A stretch of DNA of 64,000 nucleotides from a virus. The stretch covers positions 32,001 through 96,000 of the IMG/VR virus record IMGVR_UViG_3300023184_000033. One strand, written 5' to 3'. Made by a program: the position numbers and the translations under genes. Below are positions 3,445 through 32,207 of the stretch, in pieces (the stretch's first letter is position 1; the number at the start of each line of letters is the position of its first letter). The notes beneath the pieces were generated by a model. It had not been told where the DNA came from. It saw only the letters and a program-made list of their open reading frames with translations, and did not search any database.

Positions 3445-5987
3445 GCAAAAAAGTCCTCTAGTGAGCTAACTTTCTCAGTTTTCCATCCCATGCAATCCAA
3501 AACAACTTTAATTGGTTCAAGAAAAGCTTTCGAAAATTGTGTATCATAATCAATATAATTCTGTAATTCAAATTCTTTTGGCAGTCTGCCGGGATAAGAC
3601 ACGACCATATCCTTGAAAGGATTAGGCATTTTGAGATAAGTAAATTTAACTTTCTCACCTTCTTGTATCAAAGGATACTTTTTATCCAAACCTTTTTGTT
3701 TAAGATAGTGGTTATGAAGAATTGCACCTTTTACGTGAATAGGTGTACCCTTCTTATAAAGAGAAAGTGAGTCTGAATAGGTATTTAGCCCATTAAGACC
3801 TCTAGGAAAAGAAATTTCTTCCACAGGAAGTTGATTAAAACTATCTCTAAACTCTTTAATGAATTTATGAATATCATCTTCAGTACCATTTACCATCAAC
3901 TTAACAGCTTCAACCATTTTTACACGAATAATGGAAGGAGTTGAGGATTTAATCATCTCAAGTCCCATGATCTTCATGTGTGGTTCGTTGTACTGTACAC
4001 CTTCGTTGTTATGCACATTTAAGATATAACGTTTCTTGGCAGTCCAGATACCTTTGTCAGATAATCCTTCACGCTTCATTTCCATCTTTTGTTGATATGC
4101 GTGGACATACGTAGCAAGTTCTTGATAACTCTTGTCGATGTATGGTTGTATTTTATCTTCACAGACACGGTCCATGAAGGATATAATTTGTTTAACATCT
4201 GTCTTCGATGAATACACTTTATTAACAAGTGGACCAAGCTTGAGATAAATCGAATCTGTGTCTGAGGCGATAACATAATCTTCGTTTTCTGTTTTCAATA
4301 GTGTATTCAAATATACATTTAATTTATTTTCAATCCAACGAATACTTAATTGACCAGCAGTGGTGACACCCAAGGCCATACGCAAATCATAGAAACGGAA
4401 GTATTGTGAACCAAGAGCACCATAAGCAGAGTTAAGTGATACTTTCTTTGCTAGTTGAATGTTATTGAATTTTGCAATTCGTTTTTCGATTTCATACTTT
4501 TTGGATTCATCGGTTTCATTTTCAAGTTCCTGTGTTGCGTTCAACATCATCTTCTTAAACTTCTTACGATCCTGATACATTTCTTCCATCATTGCAGGTA
4601 AAAAACCTTGAATGTCTGTACGAAAGAATTGTCCGTTTGGGGTAATAGTTGCACCTTCCAAACTTGAAAGGTCAATTTGTTTTTTAAGTAACTTATCAAC
4701 CGATACAACCTGTGACAAAATGTCACGCATTTCATCTGTATAGTCTTCTGGTTTAATAAGAGTCTCTGGTGAAATATTGTATTGCATCATTAGATGAGGA
4801 TACAAAGAGTTCAAGTCAAAACTGGCAACATAGTGATGCAGACCAACTTGTGGATCTTTTACATAAGCACCTTCAAACGCTTCAGTCTTTTCCTGTACAT
4901 CACGTGGAGGAACAACAATACTCTTTTCCAACAGGTAAGAGTATGTCAAAGAATCCCACATACGTGTCTGTGCAAACACATCTTCATAGTTACATTTGGT
5001 ATCATATGCAAGAGTCAAAGCCAACTCAACCAATTTTAACTTGTCTTCAAGTTTCAGGATCAGTTTAACGTCTTTGATGTTGTACTCAATAAACTTCTGA
5101 TAGTTCAATCGGTAAAGAGCATGAAGGTTATCATATTCATCATAGGAAATTTTACCTTCACCAAGTTCAACTTGTGCAATGTTATCCAAACGATATGATT
5201 CCTGTGACTTACCACCTGGCGCATACCATTTGTATAACTCAATATAGTCGAGTGATTCGATACCGACAAGACCATAAGCAATCAACTTACGACCATTGAT
5301 ATTGGTTTGACGTTCAGAGATGTATCTCCAAGGCGACAGATTTCTTGTTTCTTCTTCGCCAAGAATCTTACGGAAACGATTGACAAGATAAGGAATATCA
5401 AAGAACTTGGTATTCCATCCAGTAATCACATCAGGACACTTGGCTTGCCACAGTTGAATAAATTTCTTGCAAAGAGTCCACTCATCTTTACACTTGATAT
5501 AGTTTTCATCACCTTGAACCACATAGTCACCACAACCGAACACATACGTTTCACCATTCAAGTATGTAACAGCAATAGCCGTGATAGGTTCGTTTGCAAG
5601 ATAAGGGTCGGGGAAACCATTTTCAGAACCAACCTCAATATCGATAACAGCAACGGAGACTTTATCTTGATCCCAATCAACCATGCCTTTGTGTTGGTCT
5701 GCAATAAATGCATATTCATATCTGGTGTTACCATAAATCTTTGGTGCACCAGGAAGTCCATCGAATTGTTTTACGAATTCTCTAGCTTCACGAATTGTTT
5801 CAAATTCTTTACGTTCTAGTGGAAGACCATCTAGACTTTTAAAAGACTCACCAGTATTTTTCCTACGGGCAGGCAAATACAAAGACGGCGAGTAATCAAT
5901 TTTAAGTTTGATTCGCTGGCCGTCTTTAACACCTCGATACAGAATACTGCCGCCGAGGTTTTGTACATTCGTATAGAAGTTACTCAA
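3441..5987 (-). CDS. 43: Family B DNA polymerase gp43 (unsplit)
   Basis: DIEV exonuclease, SFDLNSLYP, KVSLNSAYG, SDTDS, KKRY motifs. Confidence 0.98.
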   Translation of the reverse strand: MSNFYTNVQNLGGSILYRGVKDGQRIKLKIDYSPSLYLPARRKNTGESFKSLDGLPLERKEFETIREAREFVKQFDGLPGAPKIYGNTRYEYAFIADQHKGMVDWDQDKVSVAVIDIEVGSENGFPDPYLANEPITAIAVTYLNGETYVFGCGDYVVQGDENYIKCKDEWTLCKKFIQLWQAKCPDVITGWNTKFFDIPYLVNRFRKILGEEETRNLSPWRYISERQTNINGRKLIAYGLVGIESLDYIELYKWYAPGGKSQESYRLDNIAQVELGEGKISYDEYDNLHALYRLNYQKFIEYNIKDVKLILKLEDKLKLVELALTLAYDTKCNYEDVFAQTRMWDSLTYSYLLEKSIVVPPRDVQEKTEAFEGAYVKDPQVGLHHYVASFDLNSLYPHLMMQYNISPETLIKPEDYTDEMRDILSQVVSVDKLLKKQIDLSSLEGATITPNGQFFRTDIQGFLPAMMEEMYQDRKKFKKMMLNATQELENETDESKKYEIEKRIAKFNNIQLAKKVSLNSAYGALGSQYFRFYDLRMALGVTTAGQLSIRWIENKLNVYLNTLLKTENEDYVIASDTDSIYLKLGPLVNKVYSSKTDVKQIISFMDRVCEDKIQPYIDKSYQELATYVHAYQQKMEMKREGLSDKGIWTAKKRYILNVHNNEGVQYNEPHMKIMGLEMIKSSTPSIIRVKMVEAVKLMVNGTEDDIHKFIKEFRDSFNQLPVEEISFPRGLNGLNTYSDSLSLYKKGTPIHVKGAILHNHYLKQKGLDKKYPLIQEGEKVKFTYLKMPNPFKDMVVSYPGRLPKEFELQNYIDYDTQFSKAFLEPIKVVLDCMGWKTEKVSSLEDFFA

Positions 5988-11823: not shown

Positions 11824-12513
11824 TTGTTACGTTTACTATTATCTTTATCTTTGGTACTTTCCGTACTTTGCAATCCATTATATGTCTCAGCAAAAGAAAT
11901 AACTGCTGAGAGCTGGTTAATATCAGACAATGGAAATGTTACATCAAGTAAAAACTCAAATCAAGTAAGGTCTATTGCCAGTATAACCAAGTTGATTACT
12001 GTAATGGTCTTCTTGGATATGAATCCTTATCCTTCTGAGAAACACAGAGAGCTTATAAGAAGAAGCTTAATATCTTCAGATAATACAGCAGCTAAAACCT
12101 TATGTAATGATTTTACAGGGGGACATAGAGATTGTATCTTTATGATGAACCTAAAGGCAAGCCAGCTAGGGCTCAAAAATACCAGATTTCTTGAACCAAC
12201 CGGACTATCGATGTTCAACGTCAGTACTGCGGAAGAATTAGTTAAGATTGTGGAAGAAGCGAGTAAGTATCCTCTGATTGTGGAATCGAGCAATACAAAG
12301 AGCTTAAAGATAAAGAAACACGTTTATACTAACACAAATCCGCACGTTAACATGTACAATGTTATGGTGAGTAAAACAGGTTACATTAGAATGTCTGGTG
12401 GTTGTATTGTAATGATGATTAAGACGGCAGAAGGTCTTAAAACTGCCATATTGCTTGGCAGCAAGAATACACATACACGTATTCAAGAAATTGATAGACT
12501 GTTAAAGTCTTAA
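11824..12513 (+). CDS. D-Ala-D-Ala peptidase, S11 family (PBP7/DacA-like)
   Basis: Signal peptide; SxxK (ASITK), SxN (SDN), KTG. Confidence 0.9.
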   Translation: MLRLLLSLSLVLSVLCNPLYVSAKEITAESWLISDNGNVTSSKNSNQVRSIASITKLITVMVFLDMNPYPSEKHRELIRRSLISSDNTAAKTLCNDFTGGHRDCIFMMNLKASQLGLKNTRFLEPTGLSMFNVSTAEELVKIVEEASKYPLIVESSNTKSLKIKKHVYTNTNPHVNMYNVMVSKTGYIRMSGGCIVMMIKTAEGLKTAILLGSKNTHTRIQEIDRLLKS

Positions 12514-12587
12514 TGGTTGCAGAGCCTGGAGTCGCACCAAGAACTGAGGATTATGAGTCCTCTGTGATACTGTTTCACCACCCTGCG
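12514..12587 (-). tRNA. tRNA-Met(CAT), initiator-like
   Basis: C1:A72 mismatch, CT-CAT-AA loop, encoded CCA. Confidence 0.85.
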
Positions 12588-12594
12588 ATATCAG

Positions 12595-12668
12595 TGGAGC
12601 GGGATGGGAGAATCGAACTCCCGACTTTAGCTTGGAAGGCTAAGGTAATACCATTTTACGAATCCCGC
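12595..12668 (-). tRNA. tRNA-Gly(TCC)
   Basis: Cloverleaf; GCG/CGC acceptor, U73, CCA. Confidence 0.93.
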
Positions 12669-12675
12669 AAAAAAC

Positions 12676-12740
12676 TGGAGCGGCCGCTACGATTCTCACG
12701 TAGACATTAGGTGGACCCCAATGTTGTTGAAAACGACCGC
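12676..12740 (-). ncRNA. D-armless tRNA-Gly(TCC)-like RNA (65 nt)
   Basis: GCGGTCG/CGGCCGC-TCCA acceptor, 7-bp stem with GG-TCC-AC loop, 5-bp T-arm, no D-arm. Confidence 0.75.
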
Positions 12741-12747
12741 ATAAACT

Positions 12748-12822
12748 TGGAGCGGGCAGAGAGAATCGAACTCTCAACTAAACCTTGGCAAGGTCTTGTG
12801 TTACCACTAGCACCATGCCCGC
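12748..12822 (-). tRNA. tRNA-Gly(GCC)
   Basis: Cloverleaf; TT-GCC-AA loop. Confidence 0.93.
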
Positions 12823-12833
12823 ATCTAAATTAG

Positions 12834-12862
12834 ATTGTATCTTATATATGCTTGTTTGTCAA
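12834..12862 (-). promoter_or_regulatory. sigma70 promoter for the Gly/Gly-like/Gly/fMet tRNA subcluster
   Basis: TTGACA-17 bp-TACAAT, 11 bp before tRNA-Gly(GCC). Confidence 0.8.
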
Positions 12863-12880
12863 GCGTTTCCGTGGTATACT

Positions 12881-12955
12881 TGGTGGGCCAACTTGGAATT
12901 GAACCAAGACTCAACCGATTATGAGTCGGACGCTTTACCATTAAGCTATTGGCCC
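12881..12955 (-). tRNA. tRNA-Ile2(CAT), lysidine type likely
   Basis: GGGCC acceptor and CCGAC-TCATAA-TCGG arm typical of Ile2. Confidence 0.8.
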
Positions 12956-12961
12956 ATAAAT

Positions 12962-13132
12962 TTAACGTTTAGAATTTTCTCTTTCTATTCGTTCAAATTC
13001 TGCATTTTCATTCTCAGAATCCTGAACTTGTTTTGGATCAGGTTTCCGAAAAATTGCATCGTAATTGTTTGCAAAAGTTTTCTGGTCCACACTAAATGGT
13101 CTTGGACTACTTCCTTTACCACCATCACTCAT
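12962..13132 (-). CDS. 56-aa hypothetical protein (GKGSSPRP motif)
   Basis: Hand translation MSDGGKGSSPRPFSVDQKTF...; GGAG SD. Confidence 0.7.
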   Translation of the reverse strand: MSDGGKGSSPRPFSVDQKTFANNYDAIFRKPDPKQVQDSENENAEFERIERENSKR

Positions 13133-13136
13133 TTTG

Positions 13137-13385
13137 TTACTCTCCGTAAATAAAAACTATATCATCAATTGAGATGACATAACAATCGTTTAATGTTTTA
13201 GTTGCTGCATTCCAGTTTAAAAGAACTACGTCATCAACGGCAACTGCATCGACTTCAGAACCAATAGCAATTACTTTTGCTTTATCGGCTTCTTCTGAAC
13301 GTGTGAGAATAATTCCTCCAGAAGTGGTCTTATTATTCTCTAAACGTTCAACGATTACTTTTTTTCCTAATGGTTTTAAATTCAT
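13137..13385 (-). CDS. groES: GroES-like co-chaperonin
   Basis: LKPLGKKVIV...TTSGGIIL...KVIAIG. Confidence 0.88.
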   Translation of the reverse strand: MNLKPLGKKVIVERLENNKTTSGGIILTRSEEADKAKVIAIGSEVDAVAVDDVVLLNWNAATKTLNDCYVISIDDIVFIYGE

Positions 13386-13421
13386 AATATCCTCAAAATG
13401 TTTATATGTCTTTTATATAGT

Positions 13422-13508
13422 TGGTGCGACTGGCCGGAATCGAACCGGCATGCCCTTGCGAGCGAGAGATTTTAAGTCTCTTGTGTCTACCTATTTCACC
13501 ACAGTCGC
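13422..13508 (-). tRNA. tRNA-Leu(TAA)
   Basis: Long variable arm; CT-TAA-AA loop. Confidence 0.93.
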
Positions 13509-13510
13509 TT

Positions 13511-14074
13511 CTACATTGTTGGTCCGTTGCCGTTCCTAAATCCAACTTCACCGCCTTCAGCGGTAATTCTTTTAATAACATCTTCAAAAAGAATTGGTGT
13601 AAAATCTGTTTGTTCAACACAAACACAATGATATCTAGTATCAATTTCATTGCCATTCATTACACGACCTGTATGCAGGTGTCCGTGGATGTTAACTCCA
13701 AATCGGCCAAGACTATCACTATGAATAGGAATATGTGAAAGAATCATTCCGTTCATTACATGATAAGCACGTAGTTCACGAAAATATTTCCGATATTCAT
13801 CATCACGAAAAATGTCATGGTTGCCTCGAATGAGAACTTTATCACCGTTAAGTCTACTCATAATAGGAAGAGCTTTGCGGTTGATAACTACATCACCAAG
13901 ATGATATACTTTATCGTTTGGCCGAACAGTTTCGTTCCAACGTTTAACCATTTCTTCATCCATTTCATCTGGATTGGTCCATGGTCTAATCTTTTCGTTT
14001 GTTTTAGAGTCGGTGAATCTACATACTCCAGCATGACCAAAGTGTGTGTCACTTACAAGAAATACTGCTGGCAT
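13511..14074 (-). CDS. Calcineurin-like metallophosphoesterase
   Basis: SDTHFGH, HLGD, GNHD, HGHLH. Confidence 0.9.
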   Translation of the reverse strand: MPAVFLVSDTHFGHAGVCRFTDSKTNEKIRPWTNPDEMDEEMVKRWNETVRPNDKVYHLGDVVINRKALPIMSRLNGDKVLIRGNHDIFRDDEYRKYFRELRAYHVMNGMILSHIPIHSDSLGRFGVNIHGHLHTGRVMNGNEIDTRYHCVCVEQTDFTPILFEDVIKRITAEGGEVGFRNGNGPTM

Positions 14075-14090
14075 ATAAAATCCTTTAAAA

Positions 14091-14165
14091 TGGTCCGGCC
14101 TACAGGAATCGAACCCATATTCACGGTGTAGAAGACCGCTGTATTATCCATTATACTAAGGCCGG
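14091..14165 (-). tRNA. tRNA-Arg(TCT)
   Basis: Cloverleaf; CT-TCT-AC loop. Confidence 0.9.
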
Positions 14166-14170
14166 TTGTT

Positions 14171-14247
14171 TGGTGCCCCAGAGGAGACTCGAACTCCTAA
14201 AATCTTGCTTCTAAGGCAAGCACGTATACCAATTCCGTCACCGGGGC
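14171..14247 (-). tRNA. tRNA-Leu(TAG), short variable loop
   Basis: 77 nt; CT-TAG-AA loop; A73. Confidence 0.88.
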
Positions 14248-14266
14248 AATTTGGAATAAATTGTAA

Positions 14267-14425
14267 TTATCTTGTAATTTTTCTTATCAATAATATTAAA
14301 TAATATTTTAATCCACGAAAAGGAAAAAAATCAAAGTTCATATTTGGCCACATTTCAATATGACCAACTTCATTTGGTATTCCACCATATGCTTTGTCTA
14401 GTGTTTCTTTAGTAGTATTTTTCAT
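14267..14425 (-). CDS. 52-aa hypothetical protein
   Basis: Hand translation MKNTTKETLDKAYGGIPNEVG...RKITR fills the inter-tRNA gap. Confidence 0.6.
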   Translation of the reverse strand: MKNTTKETLDKAYGGIPNEVGHIEMWPNMNFDFFPFRGLKYYLILLIRKITR

Positions 14426-14446
14426 TTCTTAATCTTTCAATAATAT

Positions 14447-14525
14447 TGGTACCCTCGCTCAGATTCGAACTGAGAGAACTCTTCTTTTTGAGAGAAGCGA
14501 CTTTACCAGATTTGTCCACGGGGGC
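14447..14525 (-). tRNA. tRNA-Leu(CAA), short variable loop
   Basis: 79 nt; CT-CAA-AA loop. Confidence 0.88.
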
Positions 14526-14529
14526 AATT

Positions 14530-14605
14530 TGGTGCAACCTAGAGGAATCGAACCTCTTTCAATGGCTCTTCAGACCACCGCTATGACCACATCAGCTAAG
14601 GTTGC
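14530..14605 (-). tRNA. tRNA-Phe(GAA)
   Basis: Cloverleaf; CT-GAA-GA loop. Confidence 0.9.
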
Positions 14606-14612
14606 ATATTCA

Positions 14613-14686
14613 TGGTACCTCGTTGGAGAATCGAACTCCCGTATGCACCGTGTAAGGATGCCGTTCTACCATTAAACTACCGAGGC
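14613..14686 (-). tRNA. tRNA-Val(TAC)
   Basis: Cloverleaf; CT-TAC-AC loop. Confidence 0.92.
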
Positions 14687-14696
14687 AAATTTACTT

Positions 14697-14770
14697 TGGG
14701 GTGACTAATGGGAGTTGAACCCATACGATCAGAATCACAATCTGAGATGCTACCGCTACATCATAGTCAC
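14697..14770 (-). tRNA. tRNA-His(GTG)
   Basis: TT-GTG-AT loop, C73; encoded -1 base is T. Confidence 0.9.
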
Positions 14771-14799
14771 ACCAAAGTAAACTTAATTACTTTGGGATT

Positions 14800-15288
14800 T
14801 TAAACTCCTACCAACTCTTGTTCAGCAAGAATACGTTTCAATCTATCTGCACAGAACGAAGCTGCAGGTGCATCTGGTTTAACCATTGGTGTCACATTAC
14901 ATGTACCTTTGATATAACCAATTGCTTGTTGTACAACACAAGAACTTCCGTGTTCTTCTGACTTGTTAAGGTCTAGATGAACTTCTACATGAAAGTCTTC
15001 TAATGTTTCTGCAAGAGATTGGAATAATTCTGAAACTTTATAAACTTCATTCATAAGCCTCATTGCAGGTTTACTTTTCTTATGGTCATAATCTAATTCA
15101 CGGTCAACAAAACCGAAAATCTTACAACCATGGCGGCCATCAATATGAACAACAACAGCTAAAGCATAGTCGGCATACCACACACCATCCACTCTAACTC
15201 TTTCTGAGTCAGCACCAAGATACACTTTAGTATCTGGTCCTTGATTAGCGAGAAATGACCTAACTTCTTCTATATCGAACTTTCTCAT
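14800..15288 (-). CDS. RNase H-like YkuK (DUF458) family protein
   Basis: VYLGADS, RLMNEV, EVHLDLN, KPDAPAASFCAD. Confidence 0.8.
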   Translation of the reverse strand: MRKFDIEEVRSFLANQGPDTKVYLGADSERVRVDGVWYADYALAVVVHIDGRHGCKIFGFVDRELDYDHKKSKPAMRLMNEVYKVSELFQSLAETLEDFHVEVHLDLNKSEEHGSSCVVQQAIGYIKGTCNVTPMVKPDAPAASFCADRLKRILAEQELVGV

Positions 15289-15311
15289 ATTGACCACCTT
15301 TTTTTAAAACT

Positions 15312-15385
15312 TGGCATCCCGCTAGGGACTCGAACCCCAACCAACGGTTTTGGAGACCGCTATGCTGCCATTACACCAGCGAGAT
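15312..15385 (-). tRNA. tRNA-Trp(CCA)
   Basis: CT-CCA-AA loop, G73. Confidence 0.92.
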
Positions 15386-15391
15386 ATATAT

Positions 15392-15465
15392 TGGTTCTCT
15401 GTAGAAGAATCGAACTTCTGTCTATCGGTTATCAGCCGATTGCTCTACCATTGAGCTAACGGAGA
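15392..15465 (-). tRNA. tRNA-Ile(GAT)
   Basis: CT-GAT-AA loop; one C-A acceptor mismatch. Confidence 0.9.
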
Positions 15466-15734
15466 AAAATGCTCTGCGAACCTCGGCGGTAATTGTAGTG
15501 CATCAGCTCTTCTCCTTTGTATCAGAGTCACATCTCACGCACCTTCCACCCGCTTCCCGACAGGTTCCGTTCTCGTATTGCCAACGCCAGTTCGGTTTAA
15601 CTGCTACATTTGACTGTAGGGACAGATTCTTTCACCAATGTTACTAAAGGTGAACCCTTGTCCGAACCACCCGTGATTAATTATTTCACTTCTCATCCTG
15701 CGGGTCACAGTAGCCACTATCACATGGCACGGTC
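15466..15734 (-). ncRNA. Unidentified multi-stem structured RNA (about 270 nt)
   Basis: GC-rich, ORF-less; nested stems CTGTGA/TCGCAG, CCCGCAGG/CCTGTCGGG, GTTCGG/CCGAAC and a GCAA tetraloop. Confidence 0.7.
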
Positions 15735-15810
15735 TGGAGGGTCATAGAGGACTCAAACCCCTAACTCAAACTTCGTAGGATTGTGTGATATTCAGTTTCA
15801 CCAACGACCC
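15735..15810 (-). tRNA. tRNA-Arg(ACG)
   Basis: CT-ACG-AA loop; overlapped by the HNH ORF 3' end. Confidence 0.82.
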
Positions 15811-16215
15811 AAATAATTTTCCTGCATGATGTTTTCTGTGACAATTTGCACACAAACAAGCACACTTATTAATTTCTTCAACAATTTGTTTTTTACTTGC
15901 TTCCGATTTATTAGAGATATTAAAATCTTTTTCATTACTGTTCATATGATGAAAATCTAAACAAGAAGTTTCAGACTCACCACATATACAACAACTTAAT
16001 GTTTCTTTTAATTTAAAAAACCATTCTTTATTTTCTTTTTTATATTTTTTTGCTCTTGTTAAATTTGTTGAATGGTGTTTGTAATAAGATTCTTTACTTT
16101 TTACCTTACGACATTCATCACAAAATGTTACTCTTTTTCCTTTTTCCTTGTTTTTAAAGGCAAACTTCTCTATTGGAAATTCTACCTCACAACAATTACA
16201 TTTTTTCTTTTCCAT
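15766..16215 (-). mobile_element. Free-standing HNH homing endonuclease-like gene
   Basis: CxxC pairs, CLDFHH...K...KCACLCANCHRKHH; own TATAAATA late promoter at 16237-16244. Confidence 0.8.
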
Positions 16216-16262
16216 ATATTCTCCTAGATATAAACTTATTTATAAAGTTCGTATCTTTGATA

Positions 16263-16338
16263 TGGTAGTGACGGAGGGAACCGAGCCCCCAACCTTTTCC
16301 GTATGAAGGAACTGCTCTGCCGGTTGAGCTACGTCACT
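16263..16338 (-). tRNA. tRNA-Met(CAT), elongator
   Basis: TT-CAT-AC loop; paired 1:72. Confidence 0.82.
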
Positions 16339-16364
16339 ATAATCGACTATAATCGACTATAATT
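16336..16364. repeat. 10-bp tandem repeat ACTATAATCG, about 3 copies
   Basis: actataatcg actataatcg actataatt spacer between tRNA-Ala and tRNA-Met. Confidence 0.85.
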
Positions 16365-16437
16365 GGTGGAGGATGGGAGAATCGAACTCCCGTAAACAGC
16401 TTGCAAAGCTGCCGTAATCCCATTATACTAATCCCCC
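16364..16437 (-). tRNA. tRNA-Ala(TGC)
   Basis: G3:U70; TT-TGC-AA loop. Confidence 0.93.
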
Positions 16438-16443
16438 ATAACT

Positions 16444-16517
16444 TGGTCTCGGTAGAAGGAATCGAACCTTCGTCACGTGGTCCCAAACCACGAATTCTGC
16501 CATTAAACTACACCGAG
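16444..16517 (-). tRNA. tRNA-Pro(TGG)
   Basis: TT-TGG-GA loop. Confidence 0.92.
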
Positions 16518-16523
16518 AAAAAC

Positions 16524-16594
16524 TGGCTCCAGTGGAAGGAATCGAACCTTCATTGGTTGTATACGGACCATGTTACCATTACATTACAACTGGA
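16524..16594 (-). ncRNA. tRNA-like RNA with aberrant anticodon arm (undetermined or pseudo-tRNA)
   Basis: Normal D-arm, T-arm and GCCA end; 3-4 bp anticodon stem with 9-nt loop CCGTATACA; bulged acceptor stem. Confidence 0.7.
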
Positions 16595-16601
16595 ATAAAC
16601 T

Positions 16602-16676
16602 TGGTGCCCCAGGAGAGAATCGAACTCCCACACCCGGATTACAAAACCGGACCTCTACCACTAAGGATACAAGGGC
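16602..16676 (-). tRNA. tRNA-Thr(TGT)
   Basis: TT-TGT-AA loop. Confidence 0.9.
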
Positions 16677-16681
16677 TATAT

Positions 16682-16760
16682 TGGCTCCGCATTAGAGAAT
16701 CGAACTCTACTAACCAGTGATTAACAGTCACGCCCATGCACCTTGCTCGGGTTCTGCGGA
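16682..16760 (-). tRNA. tRNA-Asn(GTT)
   Basis: CT-GTT-AA loop; TCC/GGA-G73. Confidence 0.9.
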
Positions 16761-16768
16761 ATAAAACT

Positions 16769-16843
16769 TGGCGGTTCTAAGGGGTAACGATCCCCTTCTT
16801 CAAGCGTGACAGGCTTGTGTGCGTCCATGAACACTTTAGAACC
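16769..16843 (-). tRNA. tRNA-Asp(GTC)
   Basis: CT-GTC-AC loop. Confidence 0.9.
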
Positions 16844-16849
16844 TAAATT

Positions 16850-16933
16850 TGGTGGATGCGGTTGGATTCGAACCAACGTGTTGTTACAACCGGATTTACA
16901 GTCCGGCACCTTCGGCCTCTCGGTCACACATCC
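16850..16933 (-). tRNA. tRNA-Tyr(GTA)
   Basis: CT-GTA-AA loop; long variable arm. Confidence 0.93.
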
Positions 16934-16939
16934 AATTTT

Positions 16940-17013
16940 TGGTAGGGGCACAGAGAATTGAACTCTGGTTAATAGGTTAAAAGCCTACTACTTTACCACT
17001 AAGTTATACCCCC
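16940..17013 (-). tRNA. tRNA-Lys(TTT)
   Basis: CT-TTT-AA loop. Confidence 0.92.
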
Positions 17014-17138
17014 ATCATTTGTTTTGCTGACGCACTATTTGCTATGCTCAACGGATTCATTTGCAAATTTACCGTTTCTGTACATAGTTACTTAGAGTTG
17101 ACGTTTACTCAATGGCTTACATCAACAAAACAAATGAT
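17014..17138 (-). ncRNA. Unidentified structured RNA (125 nt) with 21-bp closing stem
   Basis: ATCATTTGTTTTGTTGATGTA/TGCGTCAGCAAAACAAATGAT; G-U pairs work only on the - strand. Confidence 0.7.
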
Positions 17139-17139
17139 A

Positions 17140-17353
17140 CCATATTAAAATACATTAGGATGCGATTGTCGTTCCAGAACTTCATCTGGCTTCTCACGGC
17201 TTCGTCTGCCGATAAGACAATCTACACATTACGATTCAACTAATTCCAGCGCAGTCGGATTGCTTCATGTAACTTATAAGGTTCACAGCGGCCTGTGATA
17301 CGTGCCAAATAAGTCACCTACTGGAGTTGGTAACCTAATGTATTTTAATATGG
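17140..17353 (-). ncRNA. Unidentified structured RNA (about 214 nt) with 20-bp closing stem
   Basis: Perfect IR CCATATTAAAATACATTAGG; internal stems GATTGTC/GACAATC, CGGC/GCCG, CCAGA/TCTGG. Confidence 0.7.
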
Positions 17354-17426
17354 CGTCCCGTAGGGGATTCGAACCCCTGTGAATAGCGTGAAAGGCTACT
17401 ATCCTAGGCCTCTAGATGAACGGGAC
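17351..17426 (-). tRNA. tRNA-Glu(TTC)
   Basis: CT-TTC-AC loop. Confidence 0.93.
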
Positions 17427-17432
17427 AATATT

Positions 17433-17458
17433 AAATACAATCTAATTTTTAAAGAACA
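17433..17458 (-). promoter_or_regulatory. rrn-type boxA-like element, copy 2
   Basis: TGTTCTTTAAAAATTAGATTGTATTT just before tRNA-Glu; near-identical copy at 18543-18569. Confidence 0.7.
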
Positions 17459-17604
17459 TTTGCTAGTAATTTTTCAACTAGCGGCCTCGGGGATTCGATC
17501 CCTCTGCATTGCAATCAAGCACCAATGTTCCTCATTGGTTTTTGTGTTACCTGTGTTCCTCACAGGACTTGGTTGGATCAACTAATTTCTCAATCGATAC
17601 ACGT

Positions 17605-17632
17605 ATTATATACGAACCGGTTGGTTTGTCAA
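17605..17632 (-). promoter_or_regulatory. Internal sigma70 promoter of the tRNA array
   Basis: TTGACA-16 bp-TATAAT. Confidence 0.8.
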
Positions 17633-17679
17633 CCACTTTCTTGTTGTATTTTTACAACGTTGTTTTTATACAACATATA

Positions 17680-17757
17680 TGGAGGTGCAGGTGAGATTTG
17701 AACTCACGATTTTACAGTTTTGCAGGCTGTTGCCTTGGACCGCTCGGCCACTGCACC
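17680..17757 (-). tRNA. tRNA-Cys(GCA)
   Basis: CT-GCA-AA loop; U73. Confidence 0.92.
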
Positions 17758-17764
17758 ATATTTT

Positions 17765-17852
17765 TGGCAGAGAGTATGAGATTCGAACTCATGCACCGCT
17801 TTCGCAATGACGGTTTAGCAAACCGCTCCTTTAACCACTCAGGCAACTCTCT
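17765..17852 (-). tRNA. tRNA-Ser(GCT)
   Basis: TT-GCT-AA loop; long variable arm; G73. Confidence 0.92.
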
Positions 17853-17857
17853 AAACT

Positions 17858-18226
17858 TTATCCTTCTTTATTCAATGAAACACTTTCGGAATAGTAGCCG
17901 TTAGACTCACCATACCAACGAATGTCAACATAACCTTTGATAGTTGCTAGCTTGTAGAATGTCCATGTGAACGAATCTTGGTATTCTGATACTTCAGCAC
18001 CTTCTGGATTTTCATTGCTTGAAGATTCTTCAGCAACAAGCAATGGAACACCAATCAAGTCTTGAACATCACCAACAACGGACTCAACCGAAACAGATTC
18101 GCAACAATCTTGGTAATGGTACATGTTGTACACTTCACCATCAACAGTAACAAACTTAATGTTGTCACTGCCAACATCAACTTCTTTTAAAACTTTTCCT
18201 AGCAGAGATTCAAAATTTACGTACAT
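17858..18226 (-). CDS. Conserved phage hypothetical protein (QDCCESV / WYGESNGYYSE motifs)
   Basis: Start moved to MYVNF after AAGGA SD; the track start lies inside tRNA-Ser. Confidence 0.8.
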   Translation of the reverse strand: MYVNFESLLGKVLKEVDVGSDNIKFVTVDGEVYNMYHYQDCCESVSVESVVGDVQDLIGVPLLVAEESSSNENPEGAEVSEYQDSFTWTFYKLATIKGYVDIRWYGESNGYYSESVSLNKEG

Positions 18227-18245
18227 ATAATATCCTTTATAAAAA

Positions 18246-18337
18246 TGGCGGAAGACAGAGGAGTCGAACCCCATCCCATTTCTGAGAACCTGGTTTTCAA
18301 GGCCAGTCGCAGGACCATCCCCGCTGCATTATCTTCC
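18246..18337 (-). tRNA. tRNA-Ser(TGA)
   Basis: CT-TGA-AA loop; long variable arm; enlarged D-arm. Confidence 0.88.
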
Positions 18338-18339
18338 GT

Positions 18340-18470
18340 TGCCATATAGAAACTCTCTGTAGGATTTGCACCTAATTGTAACCTTATCTTCCTTGCAGGT
18401 TCTTGTATTGGTCGACTTTTACAAGTTTACTGTTTTCAAGTGTAGTTACACAGAGAGTTTTTATATGGCA
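18340..18470 (-). ncRNA. Unidentified structured RNA (about 130 nt) with a T-arm-like hairpin
   Basis: About 21-bp closing stem TGCCATATAAAAACTCTCTGT/ACAGAGAGTTTCTATATGGCA; TAGG-TGCAAAT-CCTA. Confidence 0.7.
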
Positions 18471-18539
18471 GGGGATACAAGAATCGAACTTGTACTAACA
18501 GATTCAAAGTCTGCTGTGCTACCACTACACAAATCCCCA
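18466..18539 (-). tRNA. tRNA-Gln(TTG), first tRNA of the array
   Basis: CT-TTG-AA loop. Confidence 0.92.
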
Positions 18540-18542
18540 ACA

Positions 18543-18569
18543 AAATACAATCTAATTTTTTAAAGAACA
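18543..18569 (-). promoter_or_regulatory. rrn-type boxA-like element, copy 1
   Basis: TGTTCTTTAAAAAATTAGATTGTATTT just before tRNA-Gln. Confidence 0.7.
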
Positions 18570-18576
18570 ATTTTGT

Positions 18577-18605
18577 ATTGTAACAGACACGATGGTCTTC
18601 GGCAA
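18577..18605 (-). promoter_or_regulatory. Weaker sigma70-like promoter downstream of the attenuator
   Basis: TTGCCG-17 bp-TACAAT. Confidence 0.55.
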
Positions 18606-18632
18606 TACATGGTGTTGTTTTTATGAAACACC

Positions 18633-18666
18633 AAACAAAAAACCCTTAGATGTTTAGTCTAAGGGT
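18633..18666 (-). terminator. Intrinsic terminator of the leader (attenuator)
   Basis: ACCCTTAGA-CTAAACA-TCTAAGGGT followed by TTTTTGTTT. Confidence 0.85.
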
Positions 18667-18721
18667 CTTGTGTTTAGAATCTTTTTAGAACTTTTTAGTT
18701 CATCCTCTCCACACAAAACCC
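18663..18721 (-). promoter_or_regulatory. Antiterminator stem, mutually exclusive with the terminator
   Basis: GGGTTTTGTGT (18711-18721) pairs 11/11 (one G-U) with ACACAAGACCC (18663-18673), which shares ACCC with the terminator. Confidence 0.75.
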
Positions 18722-18805
18722 GGCTGGCCATGGCATATCGGCACAATTAATACTTGTGCGATACTCTGACTGTAACGTAAAGGGTTTATGGGATATGAGA
18801 GACAC
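18695..18805 (-). CDS. Putative attenuator leader peptide (36 aa, all 20 amino acids)
   Basis: GTG start after GAAAG; MSLISHKPFTLQSEYRTSINCADMPWPAGFCVERMN. Confidence 0.7.
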   Translation of the reverse strand: MSLISHKPFTLQSEYRTSINCADMPWPAGFCVERMN

Positions 18806-18838
18806 TTTTTTCTTTCGATTAATTTAATTTATGTATGT

Positions 18839-18867
18839 ATTATATATGTATATATGAGGATTGGCAA
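18839..18867 (-). promoter_or_regulatory. sigma70 promoter of the leader/tRNA operon
   Basis: TTGCCA-17 bp-TATAAT. Confidence 0.8.
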
Positions 18868-18921
18868 GAGGTTTTATGGTTTTTTTGTAACTATTTGAAA
18901 TATGTTGTAAAAAAACAACAA

Positions 18922-19431
18922 TTACGGGTACTCTTTCCATCCTAGAGGTTCAATTTCCAACACAGGTGCATCTATGTTGTAGATTTCTTGGAACACTTCC
19001 CACAGTTTTTCTTTAATAGCAAACTTTGCAAAAAGGCCTGTCTCCATGCCGTGTGCTTCAACTTCCCAAGGACACAACCAGTAGTCTTCACCGGTTTGTC
19101 TTTGTCCTTTCCAGCGAGTCAAAGATTCGTTTGTTTCTCCGTAAGCAAACTGTTTGATGTGTACCATTTCATGTGCAATGGTCTTTAGAATATCCTTTGC
19201 GTTCATAAGAGAGTACACTTCAATTTCAAATTCTCTTGGTTTGTTGCTTTCGTTGCAATCAACTACATGAGCATAACCCATAGCATCCATAGTGTCGTTG
19301 AATTTGATTTTAATTGTCAGATTTTCTGCCATTTTATCAGACAACAATTCCTTAGCGTAAAACATGGTGGCACGCTTCACATAGGGGCGAAATCGTTCTT
19401 TGTCTGGACAACCAACAATACTTAGTTTCAT
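18922..19431 (-). CDS. Putative zinc metallopeptidase (HExxH)
   Basis: TIAHEMVHIKQ and PWEVEA. Confidence 0.78.
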   Translation of the reverse strand: MKLSIVGCPDKERFRPYVKRATMFYAKELLSDKMAENLTIKIKFNDTMDAMGYAHVVDCNESNKPREFEIEVYSLMNAKDILKTIAHEMVHIKQFAYGETNESLTRWKGQRQTGEDYWLCPWEVEAHGMETGLFAKFAIKEKLWEVFQEIYNIDAPVLEIEPLGWKEYP

Positions 19432-19497
19432 TTGGCACCTAAAATAGTAGTTAATTATATTTATTTACTATCGAGTTTGTGTGCTAATAATTTCACC

Positions 19498-19938
19498 TTA
19501 TGAAACGTGTACTATCTCTACTCCACACTTCCCTAAGAAGGTTAAACCATCTTCATTTCGATAATGTTCACCAAAGTATACTTTTTTAATTCCGGATGTA
19601 AAGATTTGTTTTGCACAATCAATACATGGTGCATGAGTTAAAAACATGTCTGCACCATCACCAGACTCCGTTGACTTGGCTAATTTTGCAATTGCATTGG
19701 CTTCCGCATGAATGACTTCTGGTTTAGTTTTATATTCGTAACGACCAAATTCATCATCACCAATACGAACTAGATTTTCACATTCATTTGTCCAACCAGG
19801 AGGCATTCCATTATAACCAATACTCAATACTCTATTGTCTTTAACAACAATTGCACCAACTTTGAGTCTTATAGCTGTAGACAGAGATGCATAAATCTGA
19901 GCCACCTTCATGTGTGCATCAATAAACTTTTGTTTCAC
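19498..19938 (-). CDS. cd: dCMP deaminase
   Basis: GYNG, HAEANA, PCIDC. Confidence 0.93.
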   Translation of the reverse strand: MKQKFIDAHMKVAQIYASLSTAIRLKVGAIVVKDNRVLSIGYNGMPPGWTNECENLVRIGDDEFGRYEYKTKPEVIHAEANAIAKLAKSTESGDGADMFLTHAPCIDCAKQIFTSGIKKVYFGEHYRNEDGLTFLGKCGVEIVHVS

Positions 19939-30495: not shown

Positions 30496-32207
30496 TTTTC
30501 AATCCTACTAAAATTGTTTTTCTTGCCAAACTTAATTACACTACGGAACTTATCAAATAGTTGGTCACCCTTATGAGAGATAACAAACACATTTGTATCA
30601 ATACCAATTTCGTGTATCAGCTTTAAAAATTCTTCAGTGCCTACAGTATCCAAAGAAGAATCAAACACTTCATCCAAAATCAATAGATTGGTATTGGTAC
30701 TATTCTTTAGTTTTGCAATCTGTCTCCATGTAAACAATAGAGCCAGATCGATACGCATCTTTTCACCCTCGGAGAAGTTTGCATAAGAGAAATCATCACG
30801 GTGTCTACTCTTAATTGTTTCTTCAAAATTCTCATTGATGTTAAAGTTAACAAAGAAGTCCATTGCAGTTAGGTACTTGTTAATTAACTTGTTCATAACT
30901 GGCAAATACTGTTTGATGATTCTGGTTTTGATACCCGTATCTTTCAACAGATTACTTGCAAATTCGTTGTATTGTTTTTCAATTAATAGTTCTTTGTATG
31001 TTTGATTGTATCCATCCAGTTCAACTTTCAAGTCTTTTAACTTTTGGTTTTCTTCTTCAAGGTTGTCTTTGCGTATGGATAACTCGCCAACTTCTGCTTG
31101 AATTTTGGCAATATATTTGTTTACTGCCGAGATGGTAGAATTGTGTTTTACAATCTCATTGTTATGTTCTTGGACATGTTTAACTATTTTTTGGATTTCT
31201 TCGATTCTTGCATTTGCTTTTTGGATTTGTCCCTCGATATCTTTAACTGCAAGGCTAACCGTTCCCTTTGTTTGATTGATTCCACTAAGCTGGCTATGTC
31301 TGAAGGTGTCAGCGATATCCTGCTTACAGGTTGGACAGGAGTGATTTTCATCGTAGAACTTTTCCTCTTTATCAAGTTTTTTAAGTTTAGATTCCAGTTT
31401 AGATTCTAATTGTAATAATTTAGAACTTTTCTTTTCGATTAATAATTTGTCCGAAATCTTATTTTGCAGTATATCAATGTGTTTATTGATTAATACAATC
31501 TCTTTATTTAATTTATCAATCTGTTGTTCAGACTCAATGATTTCATTTTTCTTTTTATCAATTTCGGCATCATTGTGTTTCTTATGTTCGTCAATATTAT
31601 GTTTTTGCAGTTCAATTTTTTCACCTGCAAGCACCATATCGTATTTGCTTTTGGTAAGATTTTCTTTTACAATAGACATACGTTCCTTCACAAGATTATT
31701 CATCGAGGAAAAGATTTGAATGTCTAGAAGGTCCTCAATGATTGTTCTTCGGTCTGATGAAGACAATTGCATGAACGGAGTGAATGATGCTGAACCAAGA
31801 ATAACAACCTGCGTAAAAGACTTATAGTTTAGTTTAAGAATTGAATTCTCTAATATGTCTTGATAGTCTTTAGCAGCTGCATCTTGATTCAGCAAAACAG
31901 AATCGCAGTAAATCTCAAACACGTTAGGTTTAATACCACGAACAATTTTATAGTTCTTTTGACCAATCTTTAATTCAATTTCAACAATACAATCACGTTG
32001 ATTAATTGAGTTCAACAGTTGTGGTTTATTAATTTTACGGAAAGGTTTTCCAAAAAGACCAAAACATAAGGCATCCAGAATTGTGGATTTGCCTGCACCA
32101 TTATGTCCAATCACAAGAGTGTTTGGAGATTTGGTTAAACTAATTTCGGTAAAGGCGGCACCTGTACTTAAAAAATTACGCCATCTAACTTTTTCAAATA
32201 AAATCAT
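30492..32207 (-). CDS. 46: gp46 recombination ATPase (Rad50-like)
   Basis: GHNGAGKS, CPTC hook, FSEGE, LILDE. Confidence 0.97.
   Translation of the reverse strand: MILFEKVRWRNFLSTGAAFTEISLTKSPNTLVIGHNGAGKSTILDALCFGLFGKPFRKINKPQLLNSINQRDCIVEIELKIGQKNYKIVRGIKPNVFEIYCDSVLLNQDAAAKDYQDILENSILKLNYKSFTQVVILGSASFTPFMQLSSSDRRTIIEDLLDIQIFSSMNNLVKERMSIVKENLTKSKYDMVLAGEKIELQKHNIDEHKKHNDAEIDKKKNEIIESEQQIDKLNKEIVLINKHIDILQNKISDKLLIEKKSSKLLQLESKLESKLKKLDKEEKFYDENHSCPTCKQDIADTFRHSQLSGINQTKGTVSLAVKDIEGQIQKANARIEEIQKIVKHVQEHNNEIVKHNSTISAVNKYIAKIQAEVGELSIRKDNLEEENQKLKDLKVELDGYNQTYKELLIEKQYNEFASNLLKDTGIKTRIIKQYLPVMNKLINKYLTAMDFFVNFNINENFEETIKSRHRDDFSYANFSEGEKMRIDLALLFTWRQIAKLKNSTNTNLLILDEVFDSSLDTVGTEEFLKLIHEIGIDTNVFVISHKGDQLFDKFRSVIKFGKKNNFSRIEK

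Follow-up and report, generated by a model that had tools for sequence, protein, structure and literature searches.

A short leader frame holding the full set of amino acids before a phage tRNA array, a probable ribosome-mediated attenuator of tRNA genes

The stretch analysed here, called the window, is 64,000 nucleotides (nt) of virus DNA, positions 32,001 to 96,000 of the IMG/VR virus record IMGVR_UViG_3300023184_000033. The record is 163.8 kb long with a completeness of 98% as estimated by CheckV, and its phage is T4-like and uncultured, having only distant cultured relatives. On the minus strand of the window, a 36-codon open reading frame (ORF) containing all 20 amino acids precedes a large array of transfer RNA (tRNA) genes. 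This leader is probably a ribosome-mediated leader-peptide attenuator, by which read-through into the tRNA genes would rise when nearly any amino acid is decoded slowly. Comparison of related sequences establishes a conserved translated frame, selection for completeness of the amino-acid set, a covarying antiterminator and terminator that share a base, and an obligate linkage to tRNA arrays.

All parts of the element lie on the minus strand. The leader promoter P1 (18839-18867) has TTGCCA at 18867-18862 and TATAAT at 18844-18839 with a 17-nt spacer, matching the sigma-70 consensus at 11 of 12 positions, and a promoter is also present at this place in relatives. A Shine-Dalgarno-like GAAAG (18812-18816) and six A's are followed by the GTG start codon at 18805, from which the ORF runs through 36 codons to a TAA stop (18695-18805). 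In the minimum free energy (MFE) fold there is a mid-ORF hairpin at 18736-18763 (arms 18763-18754 and 18746-18736), a candidate pause hairpin for RNA polymerase. Codons 29-32, beginning with an in-frame GGG, form the 5' strand of the antiterminator (18711-18721), as indicated by the covariation and duplex tests given below; 18721-18711 pairs with the 3' strand 18673-18663 over 11 positions, ten of them Watson-Crick and one G-U. The final CCC of the 3' strand (18665-18663) doubles as the base of the 5' arm of an intrinsic terminator (18633-18665), which has an 8-bp stem (CCCTTAGA at 18665-18658 with TCTAAGGG at 18650-18643), a 7-nt loop and a T6-G-T3 tract with the T6 run at 18642-18637. A terminator-scan tool lengthened this stem to 12 pairs by drawing in the T tract. 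It is the sole strong minus-strand intrinsic terminator within 12300-19500. The original prediction, made from the letters of the window, had described P1, the GAAAG, the GTG-started ORF of 36 codons with all 20 amino acids, the mid-ORF hairpin and an antiterminator pairing at 11 of 11 positions, and all of them were recovered in place, the pairing with its one G-U; the stem of the terminator, however, had been given as 9 bp.

The window leader departs from chance in several ways. Its first 26 codons are non-repeating and 29 of the 36 are distinct, which had been predicted to be unlikely by chance; among 20,000 random 36-codon windows from genes of the same phage, the run before a codon repeat had a mean of 7.3 and none reached 26. 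Given the proteome composition of this phage, 36 residues would contain the full amino-acid set with a probability of 0.0019, and only 5 of 14,303 real 36-residue windows of its proteins did so. Among the 235 short ORFs of the window (31-41 amino acids (aa), all frames), the leader was the only one with 20 amino acids. Its codon adaptation was 0.48 against a gene mean of 0.71 (P = 0.002), and the leader RNA folded more strongly than shuffled sequences (z = -4.1).

Relatives were sought first with a 169-aa gene upstream of the leader as anchor, and then by a DNA-pattern scan of IMG/VR. In the pattern, 12 conserved bases were separated by a gap from the end of the terminator, and an ORF was not required. 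The scan gave 116 stretches with 77 unique cores, encoding 63 distinct peptides of 31-41 residues. Each of the 67 unique coding sequences had an open frame 0, which begins with a start codon 11-15 codons before the anchor motif and closes with a stop before the terminator is reached, whereas frames +1 and +2 contained stops in 62 and 66 of the 67, respectively. Indels between subfamilies stay in frame. The start codons were ATG (36), GTG (24) and TTG (7), placed either after GAAAG or GGAG at the spacing of a ribosome site or in a leaderless layout; in the latter, seen in 20 unique sequences, the start lies exactly 6 nt after the -10 box. Because frame 0 is open and the others are almost always closed, the indels are in frame and the starts are so placed, there is strong comparative evidence that the leader frame is translated. 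Relatives with a short ORF of high codon and amino-acid diversity and low sequence conservation, which the original prediction had named as a check, were found in this family.

All 20 amino acids occurred in 43 of the 63 distinct peptides and 19 in a further 17, the minimum being 17 amino acids. For peptides of 31-41 residues, the null probability of a complete set is 0.0003-0.004. Several peptides of 31 residues are complete, against a null of 0.0003 and no complete case among 14,548 real windows of that length. The peptides form seven clusters with less than 55% identity (down to 19%), and each cluster includes a member with all 20; when 45-60% of positions were replaced at random, the full set survived in 1-3% of trials. 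The rare residues His, Cys, Gln and Phe occupy different positions in different lineages. The pooled leader composition was flattened, with 4.3% Cys and 3.1% Trp vs 1.2% each in the proteome. Where an amino acid recurs, the identical codon was used in 22% of pairs vs 38% expected. Regulatory codons were not concentrated: there were no runs, and on average 8.9 amino-acid types were used exactly once. These comparisons support selection that keeps the amino-acid set of the leader complete.

There is also a recurring peptide motif in the family, Glu-Tyr-Arg-Thr with a downstream Ser/Pro-Trp. The single strongly conserved peptide stretch coincides with the stem of the mid-ORF hairpin, and non-synonymous changes in this stem are compensated on the opposite arm (relatives L078 and L066). 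Its basal UAUCG/CGAUA stem was kept in all variants, and the apical part varies. Since the conserved stretch falls on a hairpin stem with compensated changes and the set is kept complete, what is constrained is the structure of the RNA and the composition of the peptide rather than its fold.

For the RNA switch, a covariance model was built from 13 window-like sequences and 50 family members were aligned (alignment A3); this was used in place of a MAFFT alignment (A1), which shifted register in the helices. In A3 all 8 pairs of the antiterminator helix showed compensatory changes and 92% of its cells were paired; for the terminator the figures were 6 of 7 pairs and 97.6% of cells, so that the covarying stems proposed as a check were present. 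None of 500 shuffles reached the observed covariation, and partners slid by 1-3 columns scored 3 to 9 times lower. In an alignment-free check, the best antiterminator duplex was stronger than shuffles (z < -2) in 32 of 36 representatives. The 3' strand of the antiterminator always extends into the 5' arm of the terminator, over its first 3-4 C's. A conserved GGG stands at the head of the antiterminator 5' strand, in frame in those members that were read by eye; this strand lies 0-6 codons ahead of the leader stop codon, which is itself located 25-37 nt ahead of the terminator. It means that a terminating ribosome would mask the antiterminator strand, not the terminator.

An equilibrium model was also made, in which the ribosome was a 30-nt unpaired footprint and the pair probabilities of the terminator were computed. 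The modelled terminator probability had a median of 0.98 with the ribosome at late codons near the stop and of 0.5 with an earlier ribosome. A clear switch, with terminator probability below 0.3 at some position, was obtained in 19 of 35 representatives, 12 of them showing it at half or more of the early codons; in the window the probability was about 0.1 with the modelled ribosome at codons 18-23. This footprint model ignores kinetics and its support for the switch is moderate. With a conservative footprint, the predicted sensing window, in which a stall should promote read-through, holds about 15-18 of the 19 elongator amino acids. Some of the late leader codons are dictated by the RNA helix itself.

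The element is linked to tRNA genes without exception. In all 72 elements with enough flank, a co-oriented tRNA gene lies within 133 nt downstream, and this first tRNA is Gln in 66, Pro in 5 and Ser in 1. The arrays behind the elements have up to 29 tRNAs, and those fully captured cover 19-20 amino acids. A promoter-like site between terminator and tRNA was present in 57 of the 72 and absent in 15. In at least eight elements of the long group, which includes the leaders described so far, the tRNA begins 5-11 nt after the T tract. This leaves no space for another promoter, so transcription from the leader promoter must cross the terminator to enter the array. In some relatives the leader promoter is the sole nearby promoter.

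A shorter sister group has leaders of 22-25 codons with a leaderless ATG and 14-17 amino-acid types, and shares the same antiterminator and terminator design. Where flank is available, the distance from the T tract to the tRNA is 7-10 nt in most members, with 5 nt in L197 and 87 nt in L204, and each array comprises only 5-14 tRNAs. Leaders with Ser-Pro-Ala before the Trp codon go together with arrays headed by Ala-Ser-Ser-Trp-Pro, and leaders without Ala and Pro head arrays without Ala and Pro tRNAs. One exception is L051, with a Ser-Pro-Ala leader and an array in which ARAGORN found neither Ala nor Pro tRNA. From these sequences it is suggestive that short leaders track the content of their arrays, with few evolutionary events behind the pattern.

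We propose the following mechanism. The host RNA polymerase would start at P1 and a ribosome would translate the 36-codon leader. The mid-ORF hairpin is placed like the trp pause hairpin, and by this analogy would synchronise polymerase and ribosome. A ribosome that reaches the end of the ORF would cover the GGG-started strand (codons 29-32), leaving its 3' partner free; the terminator would form and transcription would end 100 nt ahead of tRNA-Gln. If the ribosome stalled at about codons 2-24 for want of any charged tRNA, the antiterminator strands would pair, this pairing would take three C's at the base of the terminator, and the polymerase would continue into the tRNA genes. As the leader has approximately one codon for nearly every amino acid, tRNA transcription would be raised by slow decoding at almost any of these codons. 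The output would be a negative feedback on the near-complete tRNA set of the phage, poor decoding giving more phage tRNA. Both the direction of this switch and the kind of stress sensed in nature are what we infer.

The array of the window phage can also be transcribed from other promoters. The second promoter P2 (18577-18605), with TTGCCG, a 17-nt spacer, TACAAT and a TG, is downstream of the terminator, and two further promoters are located at 17632-17605 and 12862-12834, all on the minus strand; the three had been predicted, the first two as bypass promoters, and all of them exist. With P2 and the two array promoters present, the leader would be a modulator rather than an on/off gate.

Several points weigh against the proposed attenuation. 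The pair counts lean towards structure because A3 was fitted to the model, and its sequences are related. The antiterminator and terminator share just 3-4 G-C pairs, and partial coexistence is possible. In the equilibrium model a clear switch was seen in the 19 representatives mentioned above and no switch in about 16 of the 35. In the window, the MFE fold joins codons 2-8 to codons 29-34, an arrangement of the anti-antiterminator type; over 36 representatives such pairing was no stronger than shuffles (mean z = -0.65), and we do not propose it as a conserved element. Trp, Val, Ala, His and Gly often appear no earlier than the final codons, at which stalling should promote termination. The OR-gate for loss of almost any tRNA, as first predicted, would under the simple model cover the amino acids inside the predicted sensing window and miss those that lie late. 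In the 57 of 72 members with a promoter after the terminator, the window phage included, the array is independent of read-through. In the long group there was no correspondence between amino acids missing from the leader and tRNAs missing from the array, in a comparison where arrays were often cut by contig ends and some tRNAs were missed by ARAGORN. One relative, L189, has a leader of 19 amino acids and only 8 co-oriented tRNAs in the 11 kb downstream; it is an exception to the pairing of complete leader with complete array, and may reflect array loss. As a whole, the interpretation first offered is supported in its attenuator architecture and in the selection for all amino acids, while the switching is something we infer and bypass promoters are present.

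The same attenuator hardware could read the overall capacity of translation instead of individual tRNAs, the signal being ribosome or initiation availability, host shut-off, or ribosome-targeting toxins or antibiotics, with an even composition that only avoids amino-acid bias. The geometry needs only a late or absent ribosome, the leaderless starts of 20 unique members would respond to initiation conditions, and codon-specific sensing does not account for the late-lying residues. But the complete set has been kept, rare residues have moved and synonymous codons have been diversified, none of which a pure rate sensor needs, and the short leaders roughly follow their small arrays. We regard this explanation as unlikely.

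Two other explanations leave out attenuation. The leader might be a small gene in its own right, equipped with promoter and terminator, that encodes a functional peptide of 31-41 residues, possibly on a dual-function RNA, and merely lies beside the array. Its conserved ORF has good start signals, Glu-Tyr-Arg-Thr and the downstream Ser/Pro-Trp recur, and the promoter after the terminator in most members gives it a self-contained look. However, the conserved motif coincides with a hairpin stem whose non-synonymous changes are compensated in the RNA, identity elsewhere falls to 19-50%, and no Pfam family matches the leader peptide. Moreover, the terminator abuts the tRNA in at least eight long-group lineages and in most of the short group, and an all-20 composition has no obvious use in a folded or signalling peptide; an independent gene is improbable on these grounds. 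A non-coding structured RNA with an incidental ORF, acting as a small RNA or as a processing element of the tRNA unit, would fit the strong fold of the leader and the covarying helices. It is very improbable given that one frame is open in 67 of 67 sequences and the other two are nearly always closed, that indels are in frame, and that starts are placed relative to a ribosome site or a -10 box. Rfam gave no match to such an RNA either: cmscan of 12000-19500 at E <= 1 reported only tRNAs and chance-level matches, with no leader family and no T-box, and the sole match inside the leader was psRNA14 over the terminator, at chance level (E = 0.41).

The presence of tRNA genes in phages is commonly attributed to codon usage or to the need to replace tRNAs that host defences have cut, and to our knowledge little has been established about the control of their expression. 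If ribosome-mediated attenuation operates here, the leader could be an alarm for attack on the tRNA pool by PrrC/RloC-type anticodon nucleases or other tRNA-cleaving effectors, that is, an inducible counter-defence and not a housekeeping feedback. A tRNA cut or depleted by the host would stall the ribosome at the matching leader codon, and replacement phage tRNAs would be transcribed more. We consider this role doubtful, and the link of the leader to anticodon nucleases is speculation.

The surroundings of the element in the window are as follows, all on the minus strand. The 169-aa gene (19431-18922), with a weak SprT-like match, ends upstream of the leader. Inside the antiterminator loop, the MFE fold contains a small hairpin GAACU/AGUUC (18688-18701); the leader stop codon spans its 5' arm and loop, and the hairpin is kept in the window-like subfamily. 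It might influence ribosome release or the timing of the switch. Between P2 and tRNA-Gln there is a boxA-like motif (18543-18569, beginning TGTTCTTTAAAAA), which we take to be close to the Escherichia coli rrn boxA TGCTCTTTAACAA. The arrangement of a promoter and then a boxA-like motif before the first tRNA is retained in relatives, and suggests an rrn-type antitermination of the tRNA transcription units. The array is headed by tRNA-Gln(UUG) at 18466-18539, detected by both ARAGORN and Rfam, and extends to 12514. As predicted, it has 27 tRNA genes, 25 found by ARAGORN and two more by Rfam. One of the latter, at 18250-18337, has the anticodon UGA (Ser) and a long variable arm; the other, a tRNA-like gene at 16528-16593, is a weak Rfam tRNA match of 33 bits whose anticodon is not confidently readable.

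The element was not seen in the cultured phages searched. When 50,697 phage records were searched by blastn with the window element and with a second subfamily, no match beyond tRNA-Gln was obtained. The 169-aa gene had only distant homologues in the cultured phages Cr30, Melnitz and DLP_6, without synteny to tRNAs, and a search with the covariance model near the tRNA array of DLP_6 and at the Cr30 and Melnitz loci gave no member. The head of the DLP_6 array has a permuted transfer-messenger RNA (tmRNA) and a 56-codon ORF without terminator. This tmRNA of Stenotrophomonas phage DLP_6 (L224 11-354, record 102807-103150), identified by ARAGORN with tag peptide ANDDSFAPMAIAA, lies directly upstream of a 37-tRNA array, and is unannotated in the record stretch inspected. 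As a negative control, the pattern was sought in contigs of bacterial metagenome-assembled genomes, where it had 8 matches, about the chance expectation, none with an ORF or tRNAs, so that they point to no host.

Some other relatives of the phage keep this order of genes but have, in place of the leader, either a plain promoter or another structured RNA. In L003, L012, L017, L019, L026 and others, a consensus promoter is followed at once by a structured RNA of about 90 nt, located in the first 130 nt after the 169-aa gene. It begins with ATGCGGT and ends with CACCGCTCCA, resembling an acceptor-stem-like closing helix with CCA. After it there is often a lysine-rich ORF of about 55 codons, and then tRNA-Thr. 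In L066, the space between the leader terminator and the second promoter is occupied by an inserted ORF (4820-5190), whose Cys/His motifs are those typical of HNH homing endonucleases. It means that the leader unit and the tRNA unit are separable by about 400 nt.

If the proposed attenuation is true, these phages measure decoding capacity and adjust their tRNA supply, and trp-style attenuation extends from amino-acid synthesis to the tRNA pool. A peptide that stays complete despite drift, with 20 residues in as few as 31 codons, is a rare and clean signature of selection on composition, not on sequence. With its small size and sigma-70 signals, the element should lend itself to tests in E. coli, and it could also be used as a compact, general reporter of translational stress.

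The design resembles the classical attenuators of enterobacterial amino-acid operons, trpL, hisL, pheL, leuL and the multivalent thrL and ilvL, which have a promoter-proximal short ORF with an internal hairpin, and in which an antiterminator 5' strand at the ORF end competes with an intrinsic terminator. In those systems full translation leads to termination and stalling to read-through, and the same logic is proposed here. Unlike them, the phage leader has no runs of one or a few regulatory codons, each amino acid being present about once, and the controlled genes are tRNAs, not biosynthetic enzymes, in a phage. The overlap of the two structures here is 3-4 bp, a conserved anti-antiterminator is unsupported, and no Rfam leader family was matched. 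T-box riboswitches also couple tRNA charging to terminator read-through upstream of translation-related genes, as proposed for the phage element, but they bind one uncharged tRNA directly without translation, whereas the phage element has a conserved translated ORF. In the antibiotic-sensing leader ORFs ermCL/ermBL, bmrB of bmrCD and the msrD leader, the position of a ribosome on a short ORF sets an RNA switch ahead of the regulated gene, a general principle for the sensing of translation stress, as would be the case here; these leaders rely on ribosomes that carry a drug and on particular nascent peptides, and in several of them it is translation, not transcription, that is controlled.

Full-text literature searches outside subscription journals turned up no description of tRNA genes controlled by leader-peptide attenuation. 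What appears new is the proposed attenuation of tRNA genes, in a phage, by a leader that is held complete by selection. The original prediction knew of no such system, which agrees with this search for tRNA genes; sensing of many amino acids through an upstream ORF (uORF) has already been published for whiB7, though neither in a phage nor for tRNA genes.

By analogy, the whiB7 (WblC) uORF of mycobacteria and streptomycetes is the nearest functional precedent. Its attenuator responds to stalls for many amino acids, tRNAs or synthetases by antitermination, and whiB7 is induced when biosynthetic genes, tRNAs or synthetases are knocked down for 18 of 20 amino acids (bioRxiv 10.1101/2023.06.02.543512). 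The uORF of M. smegmatis lacks cysteine only, removal of its Trp or His codons abolished the matching response, and the composition of the uORF sets which starvations are sensed (bioRxiv 10.1101/2023.06.02.543512). The phage leader shares this broad composition, mostly with 19-20 amino acids, although the two are not expected to be homologous in sequence. The whiB7 uORF, however, is alanine-enriched, variable and not kept complete, whereas the phage leaders are kept complete; and the whiB7 uORF controls a transcription factor of a stress and resistance regulon in a bacterium, whereas the phage leader precedes tRNA genes.

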